Assembly: GCA_964645125.1 (NCBI GenBank)
Contig: CAZXZC010000004.1
Span: 1-42,600, forward strand
Length of the DNA stretch: 42,600 nt
Origin: an uncultured Candidatus Saccharibacteria bacterium
GTDB taxonomy: Bacteria > Patescibacteriota > Minisyncoccia > UBA6257 > 2-01-FULL-56-20
Reading direction: 5' to 3'
Below the pieces are notes generated by a model. It made no database searches and was not told where the DNA came from. It saw nothing but the letters and a program-made list of their open reading frames with translations. The number at the start of each line of letters is the position of its first letter. Positions within the stretch are counted from its first letter, which is position 1. The translations under genes and the position numbers were made by a program. Shown here piece by piece: positions 5,855-42,600 of this stretch.

Positions 5855-5940
5855 ACCCACATACTTTGCTGCGGAGAGCGCTCCAAGGCCGCTAGGCCAG
5901 TCCTACTCTCCTTAGTCAAAGTATGTGGGTTTTATTGCAT
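5855..5940. repeat. Conserved-core hairpin element, copy B
   Basis: Stem acccacatactttg / caaagtatgtgggt. The core GAGCGCTCCAAGGCCGCTAGGCCAGTCCTACTC starts at 5876. The element begins 6 nt after the stop codon. Confidence 0.85.
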
Positions 5941-7533: not shown

Positions 7534-7540
7534 CGTAAAT

Positions 7541-7673
7541 TAGCCAATAGCCAGTAGGGTGTAGCCAATAAAACATCAGCCATTAGTATCCCTAGATTTG
7601 AGATCTGGGGATTTGGTTTTTATACATGCTTTTTTGTATTACACTATTGGCTATTCGCCACACCCTAAACCCT
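7541..7673. repeat. GCCAATAG/AGGGT-word palindromic repeat (family 1)
   Basis: Left arm tagccaatagccagtagggtgtagccaata; right arm actattggctattcgccacaccctaaaccct. An inner terminator-like hairpin ccctagat..atctgggg is followed by a T-run. Confidence 0.8.
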
Positions 7674-7680
7674 GTTTATT

Positions 7681-8505
7681 ATGGCTATACGTCTTTCGAG
7701 ATTTCAAAAGATCGTGTGGGATTTTTATAAAAGTCATGGCAGACATGATTTGTCATGGCGTGAAACTACCGACCCCTACCGTATTCTCGTTTCAGAGTTG
7801 ATGTTGCAGCAAACACAGGTGGCGCGAGTAATTCCAAAATATCAGGCATTTTTGAAGTTATTTCCGACTGTGAAAAAACTTGCTGGTGCGTCTCAGGCGG
7901 ACGTGGTGGTTGCTTGGCAGGGATTAGGCTATAACCGGCGGGCGAAATTTTTGCATAAGGCTGCGCACGTTGTGATGGAACAATACAAAGGGGTATTCCC
8001 CATTAGTGAGGTTGGGTTGCGCACGTTGCCAGGGGTTGGCTCGTATACTGCGGCGGCAATTGCCACGTTTGCCTATAATATTCCGACGGTTTTTATTGAA
8101 ACAAATATTCGCCGGGTCTTTATACATCATTTTTTTAAAGTCCAACAGAATGTTTCTGACTCACAACTACTACCCTATATTCAAAAGTCGTTAGATACTA
8201 AAAATCCCCGCGCATGGTATTGGGCACTCATGGACTATGGAGCGAGCTTACCAAAAATAGTAAAAAGGAATCCTAACCGTCACAGTAGGCATTATGTAAA
8301 ACAATCAGTGTTCGTTGGTTCATTGCGCCAGGCACGCGGAGCAATACTTCGAACGTTAGCGCTACAAAAGGCTATGACTGTTTCTTCTATCCAGAAACAT
8401 TTATTGCGTCAAGGTATGGAAAAAGAAAAAATCACTCAGGCGATGAGTGATTTGAGTGGAGAAGGGTTTATTGTGCAAGAAAGGGGCAGAATAAGGCTCG
8501 TATAG
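7681..8505 (+). CDS. mutY: MutY-like adenine glycosylase catalytic domain with no Fe-S Cys motif and no NUDIX-like domain; the C-terminal ~70 aa may be a winged helix
   Basis: Contains PY.ILVSE.MLQQTQV..V, GLGYN.RA..L and LPGVG.YTAAAI. There are no Cys after the HhH region. Confidence 0.75.
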   Translation: MAIRLSRFQKIVWDFYKSHGRHDLSWRETTDPYRILVSELMLQQTQVARVIPKYQAFLKLFPTVKKLAGASQADVVVAWQGLGYNRRAKFLHKAAHVVMEQYKGVFPISEVGLRTLPGVGSYTAAAIATFAYNIPTVFIETNIRRVFIHHFFKVQQNVSDSQLLPYIQKSLDTKNPRAWYWALMDYGASLPKIVKRNPNRHSRHYVKQSVFVGSLRQARGAILRTLALQKAMTVSSIQKHLLRQGMEKEKITQAMSDLSGEGFIVQERGRIRLV

Positions 8506-8599
8506 AGTGCATAGCTTACAGAGTATAGAAAATAGTAGAGAGTAAATAGCGTATAGGAAATGGTTATAGAATATAGTGGATAGAAAATAAAAAACAAAG

Positions 8600-8646
8600 A
8601 GCAAATGAAAAGTAAAAATCCCCTTGAGCGCGTTGCTCGGGGATTT
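8600..8646 (-). terminator. Intrinsic terminator (minus strand)
   Basis: AAATCCCC..GAGCgcgttGCTC..GGGGATTT followed on the minus strand by TTTTTACTTTTCATTT. Confidence 0.65.
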
Positions 8647-8726
8647 TAAAGAGGGTGCCATTATGCGTAGTCAAAAAAAACAATCTACCTTGTGTAAACG
8701 AGCGTGTTTCATAACTTCTTGCCTCC

Positions 8727-8766
8727 TTTTTAAAAAATACGGCAGCTCTAACTTTCAAGCTGCCGT
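8727..8766 (-). terminator. Intrinsic terminator (minus strand)
   Basis: ACGGCAGC-12 nt-GCTGCCGT followed on the minus strand by ATTTTTT. Confidence 0.65.
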
Positions 8767-9125
8767 TGACGAATATCCAACAAGAATATTGCGTGCCAAG
8801 ATGGGCACAAATATTCTTTTCTTTGCTTCAGTTTTTTACATTTGTAACCACCCCCTTTTTTTGTGAACTCCTTTTACAGTATTGTATTTTTTTTGCGGCG
8901 TAAAGTGGTTTGTTCTGTAAAAAAACGACCCGCGCTGGTGCTGGGTCGGTGTGATGGTATGAAAGTAAATAATGAATGTATCCAGACGTGACTGATTTTT
9001 GCCTAATACAAACTCGCGCGCGCCCATGGAGGGAATTTTAGGGTGCTGGGGAAGCGAGTTTTTTGAAATTTGCATGTATCTAACCGTTCAGTAACGCCTG
9101 GATCTGTGAACACAGTAGCAGGTTA

Positions 9126-9173
9126 TTTTAAAAAAGGAAATGGCGGCTCCGTGTAACATTTGTTAGAGCCGCC
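9126..9173 (-). terminator. Intrinsic terminator (minus strand)
   Basis: GGCGGCTC-16 nt-GAGCCGCC followed on the minus strand by ATTTCCTTTTTT. Confidence 0.7.
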
Positions 9174-9500
9174 ATGGTTGGTGAAGCGTGGGCTTCGTAG
9201 AAAATATTTGCGGGATAGCGGTATCCCTCCTTTTGAAGATTGAAGATTTTGAAACAACTGGATTGTTAATACTTTTTTTGCTCGTGCAGTAGCCCGGTGG
9301 GTGGCATGTGCTTGCGACATGGAGCTTGGGGTGCGTGACTTATTGTATTAACCTCCTTGGTTCACTTTATGGCATCATTATTTTTTGTGCAAGACCATTA
9401 ATTAGTAAATAGGGTAGAGGGTTTAGCCAATAGGGTAAATACAGAAAAATTTTTGGAAATAAAAAAATTTGCCAATGATGTAAGAAATTTAAAATCCTTG

Positions 9501-9549
9501 CAAGAAAGAATAGAAAAAGGACCCAGAAGCTCTGTGGCTTTGGGTCCTT
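9501..9549 (-). terminator. Intrinsic terminator (minus strand)
   Basis: AAGGACCCA-15 nt-TGGGTCCTT followed on the minus strand by TTTTCTATTCTTTC. Confidence 0.65.
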
Positions 9550-10078
9550 GGGGTGAAGCCTGCCGAAAGATACGGAGGGCTGTTGCGCATACAGCCACAA
9601 ATCCATTTGCTGGATCCGTCTGGCGAGTGGCAGGCTTCAAAGACGGAAGACTTACCGGTTATGGGAGCCTGTCGCAGTTGAGAAACTGCGAGATCGAAGA
9701 GTAGAAAAAGATGTACACTCTGCGACAGGCTCAGGGTTTTAGGGTTGCTACAAAAAATCTCGTTGTTTTTTCATGGCTGTAGCCTCCTTTTTTTGGGTTA
9801 ATGCCATGAGTCGTCTCTCTCAGCCACATAAAATAGGTGGCACGTCTCGAGAGTTTTTTTAAGAAAAAATCCATGCTTGGCCGTTCTTCGAGTTTTGGAT
9901 CTGATTGATGACCCGTTTCGAATACTTGGTTGGGGTGATTTTGTTCTTATGACTCCGTGTGCAGGCCTAATTAGAGTGCCCTGCACTACCTCGGTTTGGC
10001 GTGGCTAGCCAAAATCGTCGGCCTTTTTCATGGCCTCCTCCTTTCCGGTTTTTTTGTTATCAACGAACTGTAAGTGCC

Positions 10079-10106
10079 AGCATAGCAAGTTAAAAATATT
10101 TGTCAA
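10079..10106 (-). promoter_or_regulatory. Sigma70-like promoter firing leftward into island L
   Basis: On the minus strand: TTGACA, 16 nt, TATGCT. It is divergent from the tgt promoter. Confidence 0.6.
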
Positions 10107-10166
10107 GGGCTGTTAGTCGTGTATCGCAAATCGTAGAACGTGAATCGTGAAAAACCCTTGGTTTTA

Positions 10167-10195
10167 TTGCCATTTTTGAGGTTTTATGGCATAGT
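10167..10195 (+). promoter_or_regulatory. tgt promoter (TTGCCA-17 nt-TGgCATAGT)
   Basis: The -10 ends 12 nt before the ATG and there is no SD, so the leader is very short or absent. Confidence 0.6.
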
Positions 10196-10207
10196 AATGA
10201 TACGTGT

Positions 10208-11350
10208 ATGATTTCTTTTAAGGTTCAAAAACAGTCTAAGAAATCCGCAGCTCGCCTGGGGGTTCTTACGACTCCTCATGGGGAAGTTCAGACTCCATGC
10301 CTGGTGCCGGTGGCTACTCAGGCCACGGTGAAGGCATTGCCGCCTGATGTGGTAAAGGCTAAGACGAAGTCGAGCCTTTTGATATGCAATACCTTTCACC
10401 TACATTTAAAGCCAGGGGAGAAAACAGTGAAAAAACATGGGGGCTTGCATGAATTTATGCAGTGGGATGGGGCTTTAATGACGGATTCGGGGGGATTCCA
10501 GGTGTTTAGCCTGGGGTTTGGGCGAGACCTTTCGACGAATAAGGTTATAAAAAATGGAGCGAAGGTGCCTGAAGTTTTGCATGGTCGCCAACCACAACAC
10601 TTAAAGATTTCAGAAGAGGGGGTGTTGTTTCGTTCGCCGGTTGACGGGGCTCAGGTGTTTTTGGGGCCAAAAGAGTCGATAAAAATCCAGCAAGCATTGG
10701 GGGCTGACATTATTTATGCGTTTGATGAATGCCCGCCACCGTCAGCCAGTTATGAGTATGTAAAAAACTCGGTAGAGCGAACGCACCGGTGGCTTACGCG
10801 GTGTATTAAGGCAAAAACGAGCAAACAGGCATTGTATGGGATTGTGCAGGGTGGGCGTTATAAGGACTTGCGTGCGCTAAGCGCGAAGTTTGTGGCAGCA
10901 ACAGACGTCGATGGGTTTGGAATTGGGGGTGAGTTTGGGAATAGTAAAACAGATATGACTAAAATGCTCTCTGCGGTTATTCCGCATTTGCCAGCACATA
11001 AGCCTCGGCATTTGCTGGGGATTGGCCACCCGGAAGATATTATTCCGATTATTAAAAGCGGGGTGGATACGTTTGACTGTATTGTGCCGACGCATTACGC
11101 CCGGCACGGCACTGCCTTTACGAATCGAGGGCGTGTGACAATTGGGAATGCAAAGTTCAAAAATTCTTTAGAGCCGCTTGACCCTAAGTGTGATTGTGAA
11201 GTATGTGCTACGTATACGAAAAGTTATGTGCACCACTTGTTTAAGGCACATGAGATTACGGCCTTACAGTACCTTTCGCTCCATAACATTTACTTCTTTC
11301 AAACCTATATCGAACAGATAAGGAAAAAAATTCAAAAGGGATTGCTTTAA
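10208..11350 (+). CDS. tgt: Queuine tRNA-ribosyltransferase (tRNA-guanine transglycosylase)
   Basis: Contains TDSGGFQV and a CDC..C...SY.HHL zinc site. queA follows. Confidence 0.95.
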   Translation: MISFKVQKQSKKSAARLGVLTTPHGEVQTPCLVPVATQATVKALPPDVVKAKTKSSLLICNTFHLHLKPGEKTVKKHGGLHEFMQWDGALMTDSGGFQVFSLGFGRDLSTNKVIKNGAKVPEVLHGRQPQHLKISEEGVLFRSPVDGAQVFLGPKESIKIQQALGADIIYAFDECPPPSASYEYVKNSVERTHRWLTRCIKAKTSKQALYGIVQGGRYKDLRALSAKFVAATDVDGFGIGGEFGNSKTDMTKMLSAVIPHLPAHKPRHLLGIGHPEDIIPIIKSGVDTFDCIVPTHYARHGTAFTNRGRVTIGNAKFKNSLEPLDPKCDCEVCATYTKSYVHHLFKAHEITALQYLSLHNIYFFQTYIEQIRKKIQKGLL

Positions 11351-11417
11351 GAAAAATTTTTCTCGAGAGCGCTCAAGGGTGCTTGCCCAAGCTTTACTCT
11401 CTCGTAAATTTTTTCTT
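11349..11417. repeat. Conserved-core hairpin element, copy F (variant core GAGCGCTCAAGGGTGCTTGCCCAAGCTTTACTC)
   Basis: Stem aagaaaaatttttctcgagag / ctctctcgtaaattttttctt. The left arm contains the tgt stop codon. The inner mini-hairpin is changed compensatorily to GGGT-GCTT-GCCC. Confidence 0.8.
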
Positions 11418-12470: not shown

Positions 12471-12606
12471 GCAAGCCAATAGCCAAAAGGGTATGGGGTT
12501 TAGTGAAACTGCGAACAAACTGAAGTATCAATGCATTTGATTCTTCTTACTATTGGCCATTGGCTAAACCCTATTGGCTTGCTAAATGGCCACACCCTAC
12601 ACCCTC
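12471..12606. repeat. GCCAATAG-word palindromic repeat (family 1)
   Basis: GCAAGCCAATAG (12471-12482) pairs perfectly with CTATTGGCTTGC (12571-12582). Additional CTATTGGC words occur at 12550 and 12571. Confidence 0.85.
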
Positions 12607-12639
12607 TTGTATTTTTTATTTCATGTGGTATAGTATTTT

Positions 12640-12956: not shown

Positions 12957-13430
12957 ATGATTACTATTGGAATGAATGCACCGGATTTTTCATTACCGGA
13001 TCAAGATGGGGCAGTTCACACTCTCAAAGAGTATAAAGGCAAGTGGTTACTCATTTATTTTTACCCAAAAGATAATACGCCGGGGTGTACAAAAGAGGCA
13101 TGCAGTTTGCGTGACTTATTTCCAAACTTTCGAAAACAGCATATGGAGGTTGTTGGGGTGAGTGCGGATAGTGTTGCATCGCATAAAAAATTTGCATTGG
13201 CCTACAACTTACCATTTACGCTGTTGGCTGATACGGAGCGTGATATGATACAGGCTTACGGGGTGTGGCAAAAAAAGAAGTTTATGGGCAAAGAATATAT
13301 GGGTATCGTGCGCAGTTCATTTTTAATAGACCCAAAAGGGAAAATCGCGAAAGTGTATGAAAAAGTGAAACCGGAGTTGCATGGGAAAGAAGTGGAAAAG
13401 GACTTACAGGGTCTAGCCAATGGCCAATAG
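12957..13430 (+). CDS. bcp: Thioredoxin-dependent peroxiredoxin Bcp
   Basis: Contains FYPKDNTPGCT.EAC. TGgTATGAT at 12942-12950 ends 6 nt before the ATG, implying a leaderless mRNA. Confidence 0.93.
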   Translation: MITIGMNAPDFSLPDQDGAVHTLKEYKGKWLLIYFYPKDNTPGCTKEACSLRDLFPNFRKQHMEVVGVSADSVASHKKFALAYNLPFTLLADTERDMIQAYGVWQKKKFMGKEYMGIVRSSFLIDPKGKIAKVYEKVKPELHGKEVEKDLQGLANGQ

Positions 13431-13492
13431 GGTGTAGTAAGCAATGAAAAATGTTTCTTTGATTTCACTATTGGCTAAACCCTATTTGGCTA
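13411..13492. repeat. GCCAATAG-word palindromic repeat (family 1) overlapping the bcp 3' end
   Basis: ctagccaatggccaatag encodes the last residues LANGQ plus the TAG stop. The right arm is ctattggctaaaccctatttggcta. Confidence 0.8.
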
Positions 13493-14339: not shown

Positions 14340-14416
14340 GACAATAATACCCTTGTCATAGAGCGCTCCAAGGCCGCTTGGCCGGTCTTACTCTAAGCCA
14401 AGGGTATTATTGTCTC
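14338..14416. repeat. Conserved-core hairpin element, copy C
   Basis: Perfect 18-bp stem GAGACAATAATACCCTTG / CAAGGGTATTATTGTCTC. The left arm includes the last two bases of the nfo stop codon. The core GAGCGCTCCAAGGCCGCTTGGCCGGTCTTACTC starts at 14361. Confidence 0.9.
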
Positions 14417-14715
14417 CAATTTATTTACTTCTTTTTTCAAAATATTTGTGGAGTGAAGGATGGAAGAAAAAAACAACGGCAACTTGCCCAAGCTTTACTC
14501 TCTTAAAAACTTTATAAAAATAAATGAAGGCATGCTTTCTTTCGAAATATCCCGGGGGTGGAGGTGTAAGAAGAAGGCAGCAGCGCCAGGCCAAGGTTTA
14601 CTCTACTCGAAACAATATTATCCATTTTTTTATATAAATTTCTTTGCAAAATATCGTTTGGAGTGAGGATGGAGGACAAATACAAAAAGGCCAAAATATT
14701 TGCTATAATGTTTTT

Positions 14716-14839
14716 TAGTGAGAGCCGATTTATTATTATCGCGGTAGTTAGTCGGCTTTGATGTGCGTTTTGTGATTTATCAGTGTGTTTTTCTATTTTT
14801 GGTTTCGCCATCGACGCCCCCCGGTCGATGGCTTTTTTT
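14716..14839 (+). ncRNA. Candidate ~125-nt U-rich sRNA
   Basis: TGcTATAAT at 14701-14709. Internal hairpin AGCCGA..TCGGCT. Terminator GCCATCGAC-8 nt-GTCGATGGC plus T7. No ORF. Confidence 0.45.
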
Positions 14840-15117
14840 ATTGACGATTTTTTCATAATTGGGTAGGCTTGTTTTGAAAGAGGTTTTCTCCCTGCCTTTT
14901 TCATTTACAATTAAATAGGTGGATATCCAGGAGCAATTCTGGAAATGACACGCTTTGTGTTTGTGGCGCATGGCTACATGAAATGGAATATTTTCCTCCA
15001 TACCTGAGCTATACAGCCTGCCGAAGTTTACACCGCGTAAACTTATCTATAACTTTTCAACCATTCGATCGCTTTCAATCTGTTCAGTGTCAAGCCCATA
15101 TTTCATGGTTTTACCAG

Positions 15118-15146
15118 CCAGCGTATTTTTATGCGCTGGTTTTTTT
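15118..15146 (+). terminator. Intrinsic terminator
   Basis: CCAGCG-10 nt-CGCTGG followed by TTTTTTT. Confidence 0.65.
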
Positions 15147-15290
15147 GACTTCAGGATCCTACTTCGGTATTCTTAAACTCTACAGCTTCTTGAGAACTCC
15201 ATAAACCAACCCGAAGAATTTCTTTTGCGATGCAGGGAATTATTGGCAGGGGAGATTCTTCTTAACCAGAATTGTTTCATAGGGGGTTTT

Positions 15291-15404
15291 ATGCAAGGAA
15301 TTTTTCTTTGCGGAAAACAACTCGTACATGCAACCGACCTTTCCGTTTGCCTGGGTGAATGTCCAGGTGAACGTGAAACGGTCATTACCGGAAGGGAAGT
15401 TTGA
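15291..15404 (+). CDS. Candidate 37-aa Cys-containing micro-protein (family member P2)
   Basis: AGGGGG, 4 nt, ATG. Product is MQGIFLCGKQLVHATDLSVCLGECPGERETVITGREV. A T7 run lies 14 nt after the stop. Paralogous to 15441-15584. Confidence 0.45.
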   Translation: MQGIFLCGKQLVHATDLSVCLGECPGERETVITGREV

Positions 15405-15440
15405 CCCACTGGTCGGACTTTTTTTACGGTAGGGAGTAAA

Positions 15441-15584
15441 ATGATGACAACATCGAATCTTGTGCGTGGTGCGCCCATTATTAAATACCCGGCTGGATCC
15501 TTTCAATCCCAATGTCCGGGCGAGAGTGGGTATGGCTGTGGCGAAGGTGTCCCGTACCGAGTTGGTGGGTGCTGCTTGAACTGA
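15441..15584 (+). CDS. Candidate 47-aa Cys-rich micro-protein (family member X)
   Basis: GGGAG, 4 nt, ATG. Product is MMTTSNLVRGAPIIKYPAGSFQSQCPGESGYGCGEGVPYRVGGCCLN. The substitution pattern against its paralogues is synonymous. Frame +2 remains open to 15649. Confidence 0.5.
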   Translation: MMTTSNLVRGAPIIKYPAGSFQSQCPGESGYGCGEGVPYRVGGCCLN

Positions 15585-15673
15585 TCACGCCTGTTGGCAT
15601 CGGTCTAGGCACGCCCCCTTGTTTTTGGTGCTTCGCTTGCCGTAAGTGAAGTTGGTTTAAACCCTGTTTACCC

Positions 15674-15717
15674 CCCCCATAGAAGACGTATATTCTTTTA
15701 TGGGGGCTTTCTTTTTT
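15674..15717 (+). terminator. Intrinsic terminator
   Basis: CCCCCATAGAAG-9 nt-CTTTTATGGGGG followed by CTTTCTTTTTT. Confidence 0.75.
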
Positions 15718-16052
15718 GATTTGATTTTCATGTTTTTTTTGCTAGGATTTTATTGCGGTTGCATTGAAATTTGGTTACTCAGAACAAAAAGGGCAGCGGC
15801 ATGTAGTTATTAAGGCTGCTTCACGTATCCTTTATGATTTGTCCTTCGTGGCATTTCAGCTGGGTAATCTGGAGCTGTTTCCTGTGAAGGCATGAACGCG
15901 CTTCTTTGCCTGGGGACCGCTTCTATCCTGTAATTTCTTGTGACTGTTTCCAGGCATCGCCTGATGTCTTTTGTGTAACTATAGATTTGGAACTCTTTTT
16001 TGTTGGTTAGAAAGAGTAATGTGTTGTTGATTTTTCAATGAATGTTTCTCCT

Positions 16053-16090
16053 GGCCACGTTTGATAACCGACCGTGGCCTTTTTATTTAT
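16053..16090 (+). terminator. Intrinsic terminator closing island R
   Basis: GGCCACG-13 nt-CGTGGCC followed by TTTTTATTT. Confidence 0.7.
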
Positions 16091-17089: not shown

Positions 17090-17205
17090 GGTATAGCCAT
17101 CCGCCGGCTGGCGGAGCCAATAGTTTTAAACAAATACATAGATTCCGGCTCGGCGGCCGGAATGACAGAAGAGTTGCTGGCTATTGGCTCAACCCTAAAC
17201 CCTAG
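17081..17205. repeat. GCCAATAG-word palindromic repeat (family 1) with inner GC hairpins
   Basis: GCCAATAG at 17082 and 17116; CTATTGGC at 17181. Inner hairpins CCGCCggctGGCGG and TTCCGGCtcggcGCCGGAA. Confidence 0.8.
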
Positions 17206-17215
17206 TTTTTCCACA

Positions 17216-19549: not shown

Positions 19550-19662
19550 GGTAAGCCAATAGAAAAACTAGCCGCTAGGGTTTAGGGTATAGCGAATAGT
19601 TAAATCAAAAACTTTATGTCTTTGTCTGACTATACCGCAAACCCTATTGGCCATACCCTTGG
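19547..19662. repeat. GCCAATAG/AGGGT-word palindromic repeat (family 1)
   Basis: Left arm tagggtaagccaatag...ctagggtttagggtatagcgaatag; right arm actataccgcaaaccctattggccataccc. It shares a 24-mer, inverted, with 23461-23484. Confidence 0.8.
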
Positions 19663-20306: not shown

Positions 20307-20362
20307 TATTTCTCCTGGAGCGCTCCGGGCCGCTAGGCCAAGTCTTACGCCAGGAGAAATAT
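20306..20362. repeat. Conserved-core hairpin element, copy D
   Basis: Stem ATATTTCTCCTGG / CCAGGAGAAATAT starts at the last base of the stop codon. The core is GAGCGCTCCGGGCCGCTAGGCCAAGTCTTACGC. Confidence 0.88.
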
Positions 20363-23450: not shown

Positions 23451-23527
23451 CTAGGGCGCAGGGTATAGTCAGACAAAAGCATAAATTTTGCCTTAACTAC
23501 TGGCTATTAACTTAACCCTATTGCCCG
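23451..23527. repeat. AGGGT/CTATTG-word repeat (family 1, degenerate)
   Basis: Contains ctagggcgcagggtatagtcagacaaaagcata...ctggctattaacttaaccctattgccc. Confidence 0.65.
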
Positions 23528-32477: not shown

Positions 32478-32482
32478 CAAAA

Positions 32483-32516
32483 GCCACTAGGGTATAGCCA
32501 ATGGCCAATAGTAAGC
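32483..32516. repeat. GCCAATAG-word repeat, single arm (family 1)
   Basis: tagccaatggccaatagtaagcaat is nearly identical to 13414-13445. Confidence 0.75.
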
Positions 32517-32552
32517 AATTTAAATACAAGAATAACGATCCGTCAGCTGGCG

Positions 32553-33465: not shown

Positions 33466-33470
33466 GCAGG

Positions 33471-33500
33471 ATTTAGGGTTTAGTAGCCAATAGCTAATAC
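33471..33500. repeat. AGGGTTTAG/GCCAATAG-word repeat, single arm (family 1)
   Basis: Sequence atttagggtttagtagccaatagctaatac. Confidence 0.7.
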
Positions 33501-33548
33501 GATGCAAAAGGTGGAAAAAAACCTCATTTTTTAGTACTATATATCGAT

Positions 33549-37580: not shown

Positions 37581-37979
37581 TTAGCTTCTTTCACGCGTGA
37601 AATCTGCGCGATTCACTAAACGCTTACCCTTGCAAAAACTACGAGGTGTACATGCAGCAAACGCAACCATCACCGTCTCGGCGGGGTACTTACCCCGCAT
37701 TAACCACATCGGCAACACAAACATGTATTCCGGGCGAGATCGGGATTGAAAAGCCTCGCTGTCCTTGTCAGAACAAACGGCTTCCGCGCAACCCCAACAA
37801 ACCATGCCCGGGCTGTGGCCAGAAACCAAAGCCCGAAAAACCGGTAATGCATTGTAACGGCTCTGATCAAATTGGGCCGTTACACTCCGATAGGGTTCGA
37901 CTCCTTCACCTGCACATTGGGTGATTCCGGCGTTTCCTTTCACAAAAACCAAAGCAGCCCTTACCAGGCTGCTTTTCAC
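37581..37979 (-). CDS. Candidate 132-aa Cys-rich protein (family member Y-minus)
   Basis: GTG start with no SD. The N-terminus MKSSLVRAALVFVKGNAGITQCAGEGVEPYRSV is colinear with micro-protein X, with synonymous codon differences. It overlaps an antisense ORF. Confidence 0.4.
   Translation of the reverse strand: MKSSLVRAALVFVKGNAGITQCAGEGVEPYRSVTAQFDQSRYNALPVFRALVSGHSPGMVCWGCAEAVCSDKDSEAFQSRSRPEYMFVLPMWLMRGKYPAETVMVAFAACTPRSFCKGKRLVNRADFTRERS
37652..37924 (+). CDS. Candidate 90-aa Cys/Pro/Lys-rich protein (family member Y-plus), antisense to 37581-37979
   Basis: GAGG, 5 nt, ATG. TYPA..TQTCIPGEIG resembles X (KYPA..SQCPGESG). Contains CPC-x13-CPGC. A terminator lies 29 nt downstream. Confidence 0.35.
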   Translation: MQQTQPSPSRRGTYPALTTSATQTCIPGEIGIEKPRCPCQNKRLPRNPNKPCPGCGQKPKPEKPVMHCNGSDQIGPLHSDRVRLLHLHIG

Positions 37980-37986: not shown

Positions 37987-38039
37987 CAGTACTACCAGAG
38001 ATTCCTCGGCAAGCTTCGCAATAGCAGAGGGATTTTTTT

Positions 38040-38104
38040 CTATTGACCATTGGCTTGTCCTGAGCTTGTCGAAGGGCTAAACCAAACCCTATTGGCTCTA
38101 TTTT
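38040..38104. repeat. CTATTGGC-word repeat (family 1)
   Basis: Contains ctattgaccattggc ... ggctaaaccaaaccctattggctctatttt. Confidence 0.7.
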
Positions 38105-39875: not shown

Positions 39876-39946
39876 AGCTATTCTATTTTATGAAGAGCGC
39901 TCCGGGGCCGCTAGGCCAGTCTTACGCTTCATACAATAGAATAGCT
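39876..39946. repeat. Conserved-core hairpin element, copy E
   Basis: 20-bp stem AGCTATTCTATTTTATGAAG / CTTCATACAATAGAATAGCT with one mismatch. The core GAGCGCTCCGGGGCCGCTAGGCCAGTCTTACGC has the same + orientation although the flanking genes are on the minus strand. Confidence 0.88.
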
Positions 39947-42464: not shown

Positions 42465-42493
42465 TGCGGGATCGTCTAATGGTAGGACTCCGC
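42465..42493 (+). pseudogene. Duplicated 5' half of tRNA-Gln (29 nt identical to 42529-42557)
   Basis: tgcgggatcgtctaatggtaggactccgc is repeated exactly. No anticodon loop, T-arm or 3' acceptor strand follows. Confidence 0.8.
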
Positions 42494-42528
42494 TGTTTTT
42501 ATAAATTGGAAATATTAGTTTCCACCGC

Positions 42529-42599
42529 TGCGGGATCGTCTAATGGTAGGACTCCGCCCTTTGGAGGCGGCTATCTTGGTTCGAATCCAGGTCCCGCAG
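42529..42599 (+). tRNA. tRNA-Gln (anticodon UUG)
   Basis: Acceptor TGCGGGA/TCCCGCA (U1-A72), D-arm GTCT/GGAC, anticodon stem CCGCC/GGCGG with loop CTTTGGA, T-arm CTTGG-TTCGAAT-CCAGG, discriminator G. Confidence 0.9.
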
Positions 42600-42600
42600 C

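Follow-up and report, generated by a model that had tools for sequence, protein, structure and literature searches.

A conserved structured RNA candidate with two Shine-Dalgarno-led mini-ORFs in the mutY-like/tgt gap of an uncultured Candidatus Saccharibacteria bacterium

We describe a conserved intergenic element in a 42,600-nt stretch of DNA from an uncultured Candidatus Saccharibacteria bacterium (assembly GCA_964645125.1, contig CAZXZC010000004.1, positions 1 to 42,600, forward strand). This whole stretch is called the window. The element, unit A, is the promoter-proximal unit on the minus strand of island L (10106-9501, ~570 nt). Island L (8506-10207) is the gap between the gene of a mutY-like HhH-GPD glycosylase (7681-8505, plus strand) and tgt (10208-11350, plus strand), with queA next after tgt. 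Cross-species comparison makes it clear that unit A is a genuine element under purifying selection. We lean, with somewhat better than even confidence, toward reading unit A as an independently transcribed, highly structured RNA with two Shine-Dalgarno (SD)-led mini-cistrons of eight codons, in an island of up to five head-to-tail minus-strand units, each closed by a predicted intrinsic terminator. Candidate phyla radiation (CPR)/Patescibacteria have tiny genomes, and to our knowledge almost no regulatory RNAs have been described in them. Within such a genome, 1.7 kb free of protein genes is costly.

Unit A is shared with a single relative. The conserved part of the island is limited to 9655-10130 and is found in contig CAZELH010000008.1 (L001), the sole relative with a comparable island poor in open reading frames (ORFs; 1.08 kb). 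The match covers 9717-10021 (73% identity over 325 nt, E = 4e-41), and the promoter region aligns too. Between the window and L001, protein identity is 59% for MutY-like, 77% for QueA, and 82% for Tgt. Identity at four-fold degenerate sites is 28.6% in tgt, 32.8% in the mutY-like gene, and 41.3% in queA, against a random expectation of 25.6%. The nucleotide identity of the non-coding block equals that of tgt, and in the core (alignment columns 31-120) 76 of 90 positions are identical (~85%). Because this block is conserved while neutral sites are randomized, purifying selection is indicated. An element as conserved as tgt under these conditions must have some role.

The ~200 nt between the two mini-ORFs is, by its pattern of change, non-coding. 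Indels in the core relative to L001 measure 1, 1, 3, 4, 1, 6, and 10 nt and are not multiples of three, the L001 counterpart has stops in every frame, and substitutions are spread 15/11/12 over the codon positions. We considered a hidden protein gene, the 62-amino acid (aa) ORF at 9986-9798, and rejected it on the same frame-breaking indels, L001 stops, and substitution spread, together with the lack of a Pfam match. The conserved part is RNA-like and not peptide-like.

Both mini-ORFs of unit A are retained in L001 together with translation signals. The preliminary description of this DNA had listed three AAGGAGG-led tiny ORFs on the minus strand of the island, MKKADDFG (mini-ORF1), MKKQRDFL (mini-ORF2), and MKHARLHKVDCFF (mini-ORF3), and all three are present (Table 1). 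The window has three occurrences of the pattern GGAG-N(4-12)-ATGAAAAA where 0.08 would be expected, and two of them belong to AAGGAGG-led island ORFs. Likewise, 6 of the 17 minus-strand AAGGAG motifs in the window fall inside the island, which makes up 4% of it. The L001 counterpart of mini-ORF1 reads MTKTHKTHDFG, and the sole indel is 9 nt long and in frame (8 versus 11 aa). An AGGAG lies 8 nt ahead of its ATG, within 30 columns of which 10 are identical; in random sequence, the chance of an in-frame ATG plus a 5-mer SD at this place in L001 is 0.0015. Mini-ORF2 reads MKKQKDFL in L001, with two synonymous changes and one R-to-K replacement, behind a weaker SD (GAAAGGA). The promoter, both mini-ORFs with start, frame, and UAG stop, and a 13-bp stem are all kept in the two genomes.

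The ends of these mini-ORFs are alike. All four, from both genomes, stop at UAG (10005-10007 and 9748-9750 in the window; 9426-9428 and 9163-9165 in L001), and Asp-Phe-(Gly/Leu) stands directly ahead of each stop. Stop usage among the genes of the window is TAA 26, TAG 12, and TGA 7.

SD signals are scarce elsewhere in the window. An SD core, even a 4-mer, is found upstream of 5 of its 45 genes, and a TAnnnT (-10-like) box lies within 18 nt of the start codon in 20 of the 45 (e.g., 1977, 6095, 6851, 12957, 20460, 22019, 26732, and 33549), typically 5-15 nt ahead of it. With few genes carrying an SD and many carrying a TAnnnT box, the mRNAs of the window are suggested to be predominantly leaderless or very short-leader. 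Since most genes lack an SD, the perfect AAGGAGG motifs clustered in the island do not represent the default translation signal of this genome. One further AAGGAGG leads an intergenic, arginine-rich ORF of 30 aa, MGPRRRRWLRNILRWLRIRALYFSKEFGLW (1900-1808, minus strand), followed by a very strong hairpin terminator (1788-1743, dG -26); the ORF may encode a small basic protein or belong to a toxin-like gene.

The tiny peptides could themselves be the product, as micro-proteins of 8-13 aa with, for example, a signaling or regulatory role, and the RNA structure incidental. A strong SD and an ATG at all three tiny ORFs, the near-identity of the mini-ORF2 peptide in L001 with synonymous changes, and the C-terminal D-F-G/L common to both unit A ORFs in both genomes would all fit such a reading. 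We nevertheless regard it as quite unlikely, as the mini-ORF1 peptides of the two genomes are unlike in length (8 versus 11 aa) and sequence, mini-ORF3 has no homolog, the conserved codons overlap predicted stems, and conservation peaks not in the ORFs but in ~200 nt of sequence incapable of coding. The mini-ORF1 peptide is not conserved; translation as an act would matter more than its product.

Unit A is bounded by its own promoter and terminator signals. The minus-strand promoter TTGACA-16-TATGCT of the preliminary description is present at 10106-10079 with an upstream TG and 10 of 12 consensus matches, and transcription is predicted to start at ~10072. The homologous L001 promoter is TTGACA-17-TATATT (11 of 12 matches), and the conserved promoter alignment includes the upstream GCGATACA...GCCCTTGACAAATA. 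Unit A stands back-to-back with the tgt promoter in both genomes; in the window, the tgt promoter-like site lies within the final 40 nt of the island gap. At its other end, the terminator T5 has a T-run on the minus strand only, and in L001 a non-homologous terminator of minus orientation takes the equivalent place and abuts the convergent mutY-like gene. The two strings TGgCATTAA and TGcCATAAA, previously put forward as further -10 elements, are there but with poor -35 boxes or spacing, and the promoter scan did not return them.

The predicted RNA is strongly folded. The minimum free energy of unit A has z = -4.7 against shuffles, and the two-sequence RNAalifold consensus contains 78 pairs, four of them compensatory, with compensatory changes in the multi-branch domain at pairs 111-198, 150-156, and 208-246. 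The 13-bp stem reported earlier (9665-9677/9720-9732) is 100% complementary and begins 15 nt past the mini-ORF2 stop. Both of its arms are identical in L001, around an insert of 52 nt, and the competing CGCAG/CUGCG hairpin, already noted in the window, is kept. A U-run is not present after this pair of structures in the two sequences compared. The 10-bp stem GAAGCCTGCC/GGCAGGCTTC is also present as described. By manual comparison, L001 has a hairpin analogous to the long one that follows, GAAGUCGAGC/GCUCGACUUC-ACC, at an equivalent relative position. L001 further carries ~290 extra nt between promoter and mini-ORF1 (9443-9745), with a long GGGAGGTTTGATT/AATCAGACCTCCC hairpin. The distance of GAAAGGAGG from the predicted start is ~28 nt in the window and ~280 nt in L001.

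These features suggest how unit A might work. A strong sigma-70-type promoter would drive the unit A RNA, and ribosomes would load on the perfect SD/AUG sites, which are uncommon in a genome with few SDs and short leaders, to translate the mini-ORFs. Translation of mini-ORF1 would terminate at a UAG lying in the P1 loop, with the last codons of the ORF itself forming the 5' arm of this hairpin, and mini-ORF2 would terminate 15 nt ahead of the invariant 13-bp stem with its competing hairpin. Ribosomes terminating at the two UAGs may melt or block P1 and the 13-bp stem, such that translation toggles the fold. Bound ribosomes may also shield the RNA from RNase J-type 5'-to-3' decay; the two effects are not exclusive. 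RNase J is encoded by CPR relatives. The conserved core between the mini-ORFs would be the functional part, acting on some partner, possibly in trans. A search for targets by complementarity to the H1 loop gave results at chance level.

Unit A resembles several known systems in part. Leader-peptide attenuators and ribosome-arrest leaders (e.g., those of erm and cat) have a short SD-led ORF at which a translating or terminating ribosome abuts alternative hairpins. Unit A is predicted to have the same arrangement, a short SD-led ORF beside alternative hairpins, but no structural gene follows in either genome, and the terminator faces the convergent mutY-like gene. Dual-function small RNAs (SgrS/SgrT, RNAIII/hld, and SR1/SR1P) combine a regulatory RNA with an encoded peptide of 26-43 aa that is conserved as a peptide. 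The predicted likeness here is a structured RNA with its own promoter and terminator and a small ORF; unit A differs in that its ORFs have 8-11 codons and that one of these ORFs is not conserved as a peptide. In Gram-positive mRNAs, STAB-SD/hbs sites give ribosome-mediated 5' protection from RNase J-type decay (PMC4113751; PMC5737220). By analogy, the perfect SD-like GAAAGGAGG in an un- or barely translated RNA could bind 30S and block such decay. However, STAB-SD sites stand ahead of a long coding sequence, whereas unit A would be a non-coding RNA, and in L001 ~280 nt separate the SD from the predicted 5' end.

The presence of unit A in a variable accessory slot would be explained if it were an RNA toxin or addiction module, either a CreT-like mini-ORF RNA that sequesters a tRNA or ribosomes or a type I toxin-antitoxin system. 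CreT of CreTA is a small non-protein-coding RNA with a strong promoter, whose activity needs an efficiently initiated mini-ORF of few codons (~6 in CreT toxins) and a stable downstream stem-loop (PMC8501985). Unit A shares the efficient start, AAGGAGG-ATG with 8-codon ORFs, and its strong SD+AUG mini-ORFs precede stable stems in a slot whose content varies among relatives. Nevertheless, tandem rare codons are absent: every mini-ORF codon is used at least 9 times per 1000 (usage from the 45 window genes), and there is no AGA/AGG/AUA/CUA pair. Unit A also lacks creA and a CRISPR-Cas neighborhood (cas genes and degenerate CRISPR repeats were not found in the 42.6 kb, nor was a repeat pair found in the island) and has two mini-ORFs around a conserved structured core of ~200 nt. 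Unlike type I systems, it has no hydrophobic toxin peptide; no hydrophobic ORF of 20-60 aa is present, the SD-led ORFs being hydrophilic with 8, 8, and 13 aa, and an antisense partner is not evident, with no convergent promoter in the promoter scan. Conservation across saturated divergence at a fixed chromosomal position is likewise unlike typical mobile addiction modules. Thus, a toxin function appears very unlikely.

The position of unit A raises a cis-regulatory or sensor role tied to the divergent tgt-queA operon, as a sensor of queuosine status through translation speed at Asp/His (NAY) codons or as DNA-level control of the tgt promoter. It is back-to-back with that promoter in both genomes, and Asp or His codons, read by Q-modified tRNAs, occur in every mini-ORF. 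Of the 43 mini-ORF codons, 10 are NAY, versus a background of 13.3% (P = 0.05), an enrichment that is marginal and comes from ORFs that are not independent samples. Against this, unit A lies on the opposite strand, 170-870 nt from tgt at a distance that differs between the two genomes, close relatives have tgt straight after mutY without the element, and Rfam gave no match to preQ1 or another riboswitch. We consider such a role very improbable indeed. A broader and rather improbable speculation is that largely SD-less CPR bacteria have a class of structured, ribosome-engaging RNAs not described before, of which unit A would be the first member, and which would sense or titrate the translation apparatus by means of perfect SD-led mini-cistrons. 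Because it has a fixed position by tgt-queA and Asp/His codons in every mini-ORF, such an RNA might perhaps report tRNA queuosine status. The perfect SD sites, mini-ORFs, and conserved hairpins offer a testable handle on the use of translation signals in CPR.

Searches returned no known family for unit A. Rfam 15 gave no gathering-level match in the island (preQ1, T-box, 6S, tmRNA, RNase P, and ROOL/GOLLD/HEARO included). With the cutoff relaxed to E <= 10, the best sub-threshold matches reached 10-19 bits (E at least 1.5) in the window island and 12-21 bits (E at least 1.4) in L001. No tRNA or tmRNA was found in the island by ARAGORN, and Pfam gave nothing credible for island ORFs of at least 47 aa at E <= 1. 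An nhmmer profile of the two sequences recovered only the two known copies when run on the window and 83 related loci. Phage and plasmid collections had no blastn match to the island, metagenome pattern scans with the conserved core gave zero matches, and so did viral scans with the core, the H3 block, the 13-bp hairpin, and the mini-ORF2 peptide pattern. In all, no further homolog of unit A came from the metagenome, viral, phage, and plasmid collections or from 87 related loci. An origin of replication was rejected as a reading of the island since GC skew is monotonic, and a CRISPR or TIGR array was rejected since the island contains no arrays. We would class unit A as a candidate structured RNA, as yet unclassified, with putative translated mini-ORFs.

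Judging from relatives, the mutY-like/tgt slot is evolutionarily unstable, with lengths of 0.1, 0.6, or 1.1 kb among them. All tgt relatives are metagenome-assembled genomes of CPR/Patescibacteria (Parcubacteria/Paceibacterota-like), by which the window is judged to be CPR chromosome of Parcubacteria type. Among those with Tgt ~70% identical, the slot measures ~100 nt in L082 and L083 and holds an unrelated 135-aa ORF in L081 (4767-5174); more distant relatives have gaps of 9-455 nt. On the contigs of the closest tgt and mutY-like relatives, the slot is empty, otherwise filled, or in a different synteny. The window around it is a housekeeping stretch (exonuclease VII, methyltransferases, BipA, MreB, RRF, GlyRS-like, and ABC transporters), and its ~45 proteins include no cas or mobile-element genes.

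Downstream of unit A, the island contains further minus-strand units, B to D (8600-9400), with terminators, SD motifs, and folding of their own. All five hairpin plus T-run terminators listed in the preliminary description form on the minus strand (dG -11.8 to -19.5), each with a T-rich tail. By a single uniform criterion applied over the whole window, 17 compact terminator-like sites occur on its minus strand; 5 of them are in the island, where 0.68 would be expected (Poisson P = 7e-4), and the remaining ones mostly follow minus-strand genes. T1, with T-runs flanking it on both strands, probably serves as a terminator in both directions, for the mutY-like gene and for the minus-strand units. 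Unit B has two AAGGAGG motifs (9358-9352 and 9232-9226) that are not followed by a canonical start codon, and it cannot be aligned to L001. Folding z-scores are -3.6 for unit B, -3.9 for unit C, and -3.3 for unit D. Apart from the SD motifs, the island units show no internal paralogy. No homolog of units B-D was found in L001, in 87 related loci, in phages, in plasmids, or in metagenome scans. These small structured units are lineage-specific, with a possibly transient function, and may be young or decaying.

This lack of homologs and the instability of the slot would also suit non-functional filler, in which remnants of a decayed gene or mobile DNA carry promoter-, SD-, and hairpin-like signals by chance. 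We judge this to be unlikely. For unit A, it is excluded by conservation set against saturated neutral sites; for units B-D, the terminator clustering, the AAGGAG enrichment, and the folding z-scores oppose pure chance. Nor were pseudogene traces found: six-frame comparison of island fragments with the remaining window and with related loci totaling 1.27 Mb gave only a multi-frame echo of the L001 match.

Several observations weigh against our reading of unit A as a transcribed, translated RNA within a series of such units. With the element present in just two sequences and most of its stems invariant, covariation support is thin. RNAalifold energies of the two strands are nearly equal (-69.6 kcal/mol for plus versus -72.5 for minus). 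Because folding does not decide the strand, unit A is assigned to the minus strand by its conserved promoter, its terminators, and its SD/ribosome-binding features. The overlap of the D-F-G/L codons with predicted stems means that their conservation need not reflect translation. A role as a 5'-proximal stabilizer is not simply transferable to L001 because of the extra nucleotides between promoter and mini-ORF1 there. Finally, units B-D, being without homologs, could be decaying sequence.

Table 1. Features of island L and its tgt-proximal border, in window coordinates.
Feature	Position	Strand	Basis
tgt promoter-like site, TTGCCA-17-CATAGT with TG, divergent from unit A	10167-10195	+	promoter scan
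Unit A promoter, sigma-70-type, TTGACA, 16 nt, TATGCT, extended -10 TG; 10/12 matches	10079-10106	-	promoter scan
Shine-Dalgarno 1, AAAGGAGGAGG	10034-10044	-	motif search
Mini-ORF1, ATG..TAG, MKKADDFG	10005-10031	-	ORF listing
Hairpin P1; 5' arm = last codons of mini-ORF1, UAG stop in loop	9988-10022	-	RNAalifold pairs 33-68
Hairpin H1, GTGCAGG/CCTGCAC, 7 bp, 14-nt loop; within most conserved core	9959-9986	-	alignment, RNAalifold
Multi-branch domain closed by GAGUC/GACUC; long A/U-rich stem and CUCUC..GCCAC/GUGGC..GAGAG hairpin	9808-9955	-	RNAalifold
Shine-Dalgarno 2, AAAGGAGG	9783-9790	-	motif search
Mini-ORF2, ATG..TAG, MKKQRDFL	9748-9774	-	ORF listing
Invariant 13-bp stem GAGCCUGUCGCAG/CUGCGACAGGCUC around 42-nt non-conserved insert; competing CGCAG/CUGCG hairpin	9665-9732	-	
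Long hairpin closed by GAAGCCUGCC/GGCAGGCUUC	9555-9638	-	folding
Intrinsic terminator T5, unit A end; T-run on minus strand only	9501-9549	-	
Copy of genome-wide intergenic motif AGGGTTTAGCCAATAGGGT, just upstream of unit B	9405-9440		
Unit B: weak promoter-like TTGCAC-15-CATAAA; terminator T4 (9175-9132 + T-run)	9122-9392	-	
Unit C: one long imperfect hairpin (~9104-8975), then terminator T3 (8948-8918 + T-run)	8911-9131	-	
Unit D1: SD-like AAAAGGAG; GGGGGTGG-6-ATGTAA start-stop (8841-8836)	8730-8916	-	
Unit D1: promoter-like TTGGCA-16-GATATT (8799-8772); terminator/5' hairpin T2 (8766-8739 + T-run)	8730-8916	-	
AAGGAGG (8728-8722), then mini-ORF3 MKHARLHKVDCFF (8712-8671)	8671-8728	-	
Hairpin T1, T-runs flanking on both strands	8600-8647	both	

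The island does not appear to contain relics of a micro-protein family. The preliminary description had proposed small minus-strand units together with decayed copies of the micro-proteins P2 (15291-15404) and X (15441-15584). The first part holds, in that minus-strand units with SD-led tiny ORFs and terminators are found, with cross-species conservation behind unit A. The relics fail by the refuting condition of that description, since in local alignment their similarity does not stand out from shuffled controls. By Smith-Waterman comparison, the score of 9026-9094 as a P2 relic is reached by 56 of 500 dinucleotide shuffles, that of 8965-8995 by 55 of 500, and that of 9609-9670 as an X relic by 33 of 500. 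Alignments of island L to island R, the ORF-poor region in which P2 and X lie, or to 37581-37979 score at the shuffle mean. With tblastn, the P2 and X peptides give E of at least 0.29, and a blastn search of the remaining window with the island returns no match in island R. The P2-like pieces, at ~8975-8995 and 9089-9104, pair with each other as opposite arms of a single long hairpin (~9104-8975). The convergent plus-strand mini-unit once suggested here has a weak hairpin, and its ORF (MEGILGCWG...) has no SD and is not conserved. We therefore correct the record: evidence for decayed micro-protein gene copies in island L was not found, and the resemblances to P2 and X are, by these scores, chance.

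Island R itself (14340-16060) is a second ORF-poor island of ~1.7 kb, between AP-endonuclease and DUF167 genes. It contains the small Cys-rich ORFs P2 and X and several plus-strand terminators. The corresponding slot in L082 measures 0.75 kb.

Two repeat families occur between genes of the window. The first has a 33-nt core, GAGCGCTCCAAGGCCGCTAGGCCAGTCTTACGC, at 1639-1689, 5867-5917, 11367-11399, 14352-14402, 20318-20350, and 39886-39936. Its copies lie right after gene ends, each within its own local inverted repeat, and one overlaps the listed GTG start of queA; the family looks like a REP (repetitive extragenic palindromic)-like element or a terminator cassette. The second is an intergenic motif, TAGCCAATAG...AGGGTTTAGGGT, which occurs genome-wide together with its reverse complement; the two often face each other in the interval from the end of one gene to the start of the following one. 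Its sites are 7540-7577, 7638-7680, 9405-9440 (a half-copy in island L), 12472-12612, 13408-13486, 17175-17210, 19575-19602, 23491-23522, 32481-32524, 33467-33520, and 38034-38065.

The window ends in a tRNA-Gln (42529-42600). Its first 34 nt (42529-42562) are duplicated 64 nt upstream, at 42465-42498, with 94% identity. This duplicate may represent a tRNA copy that was truncated, or a scar left by integration.

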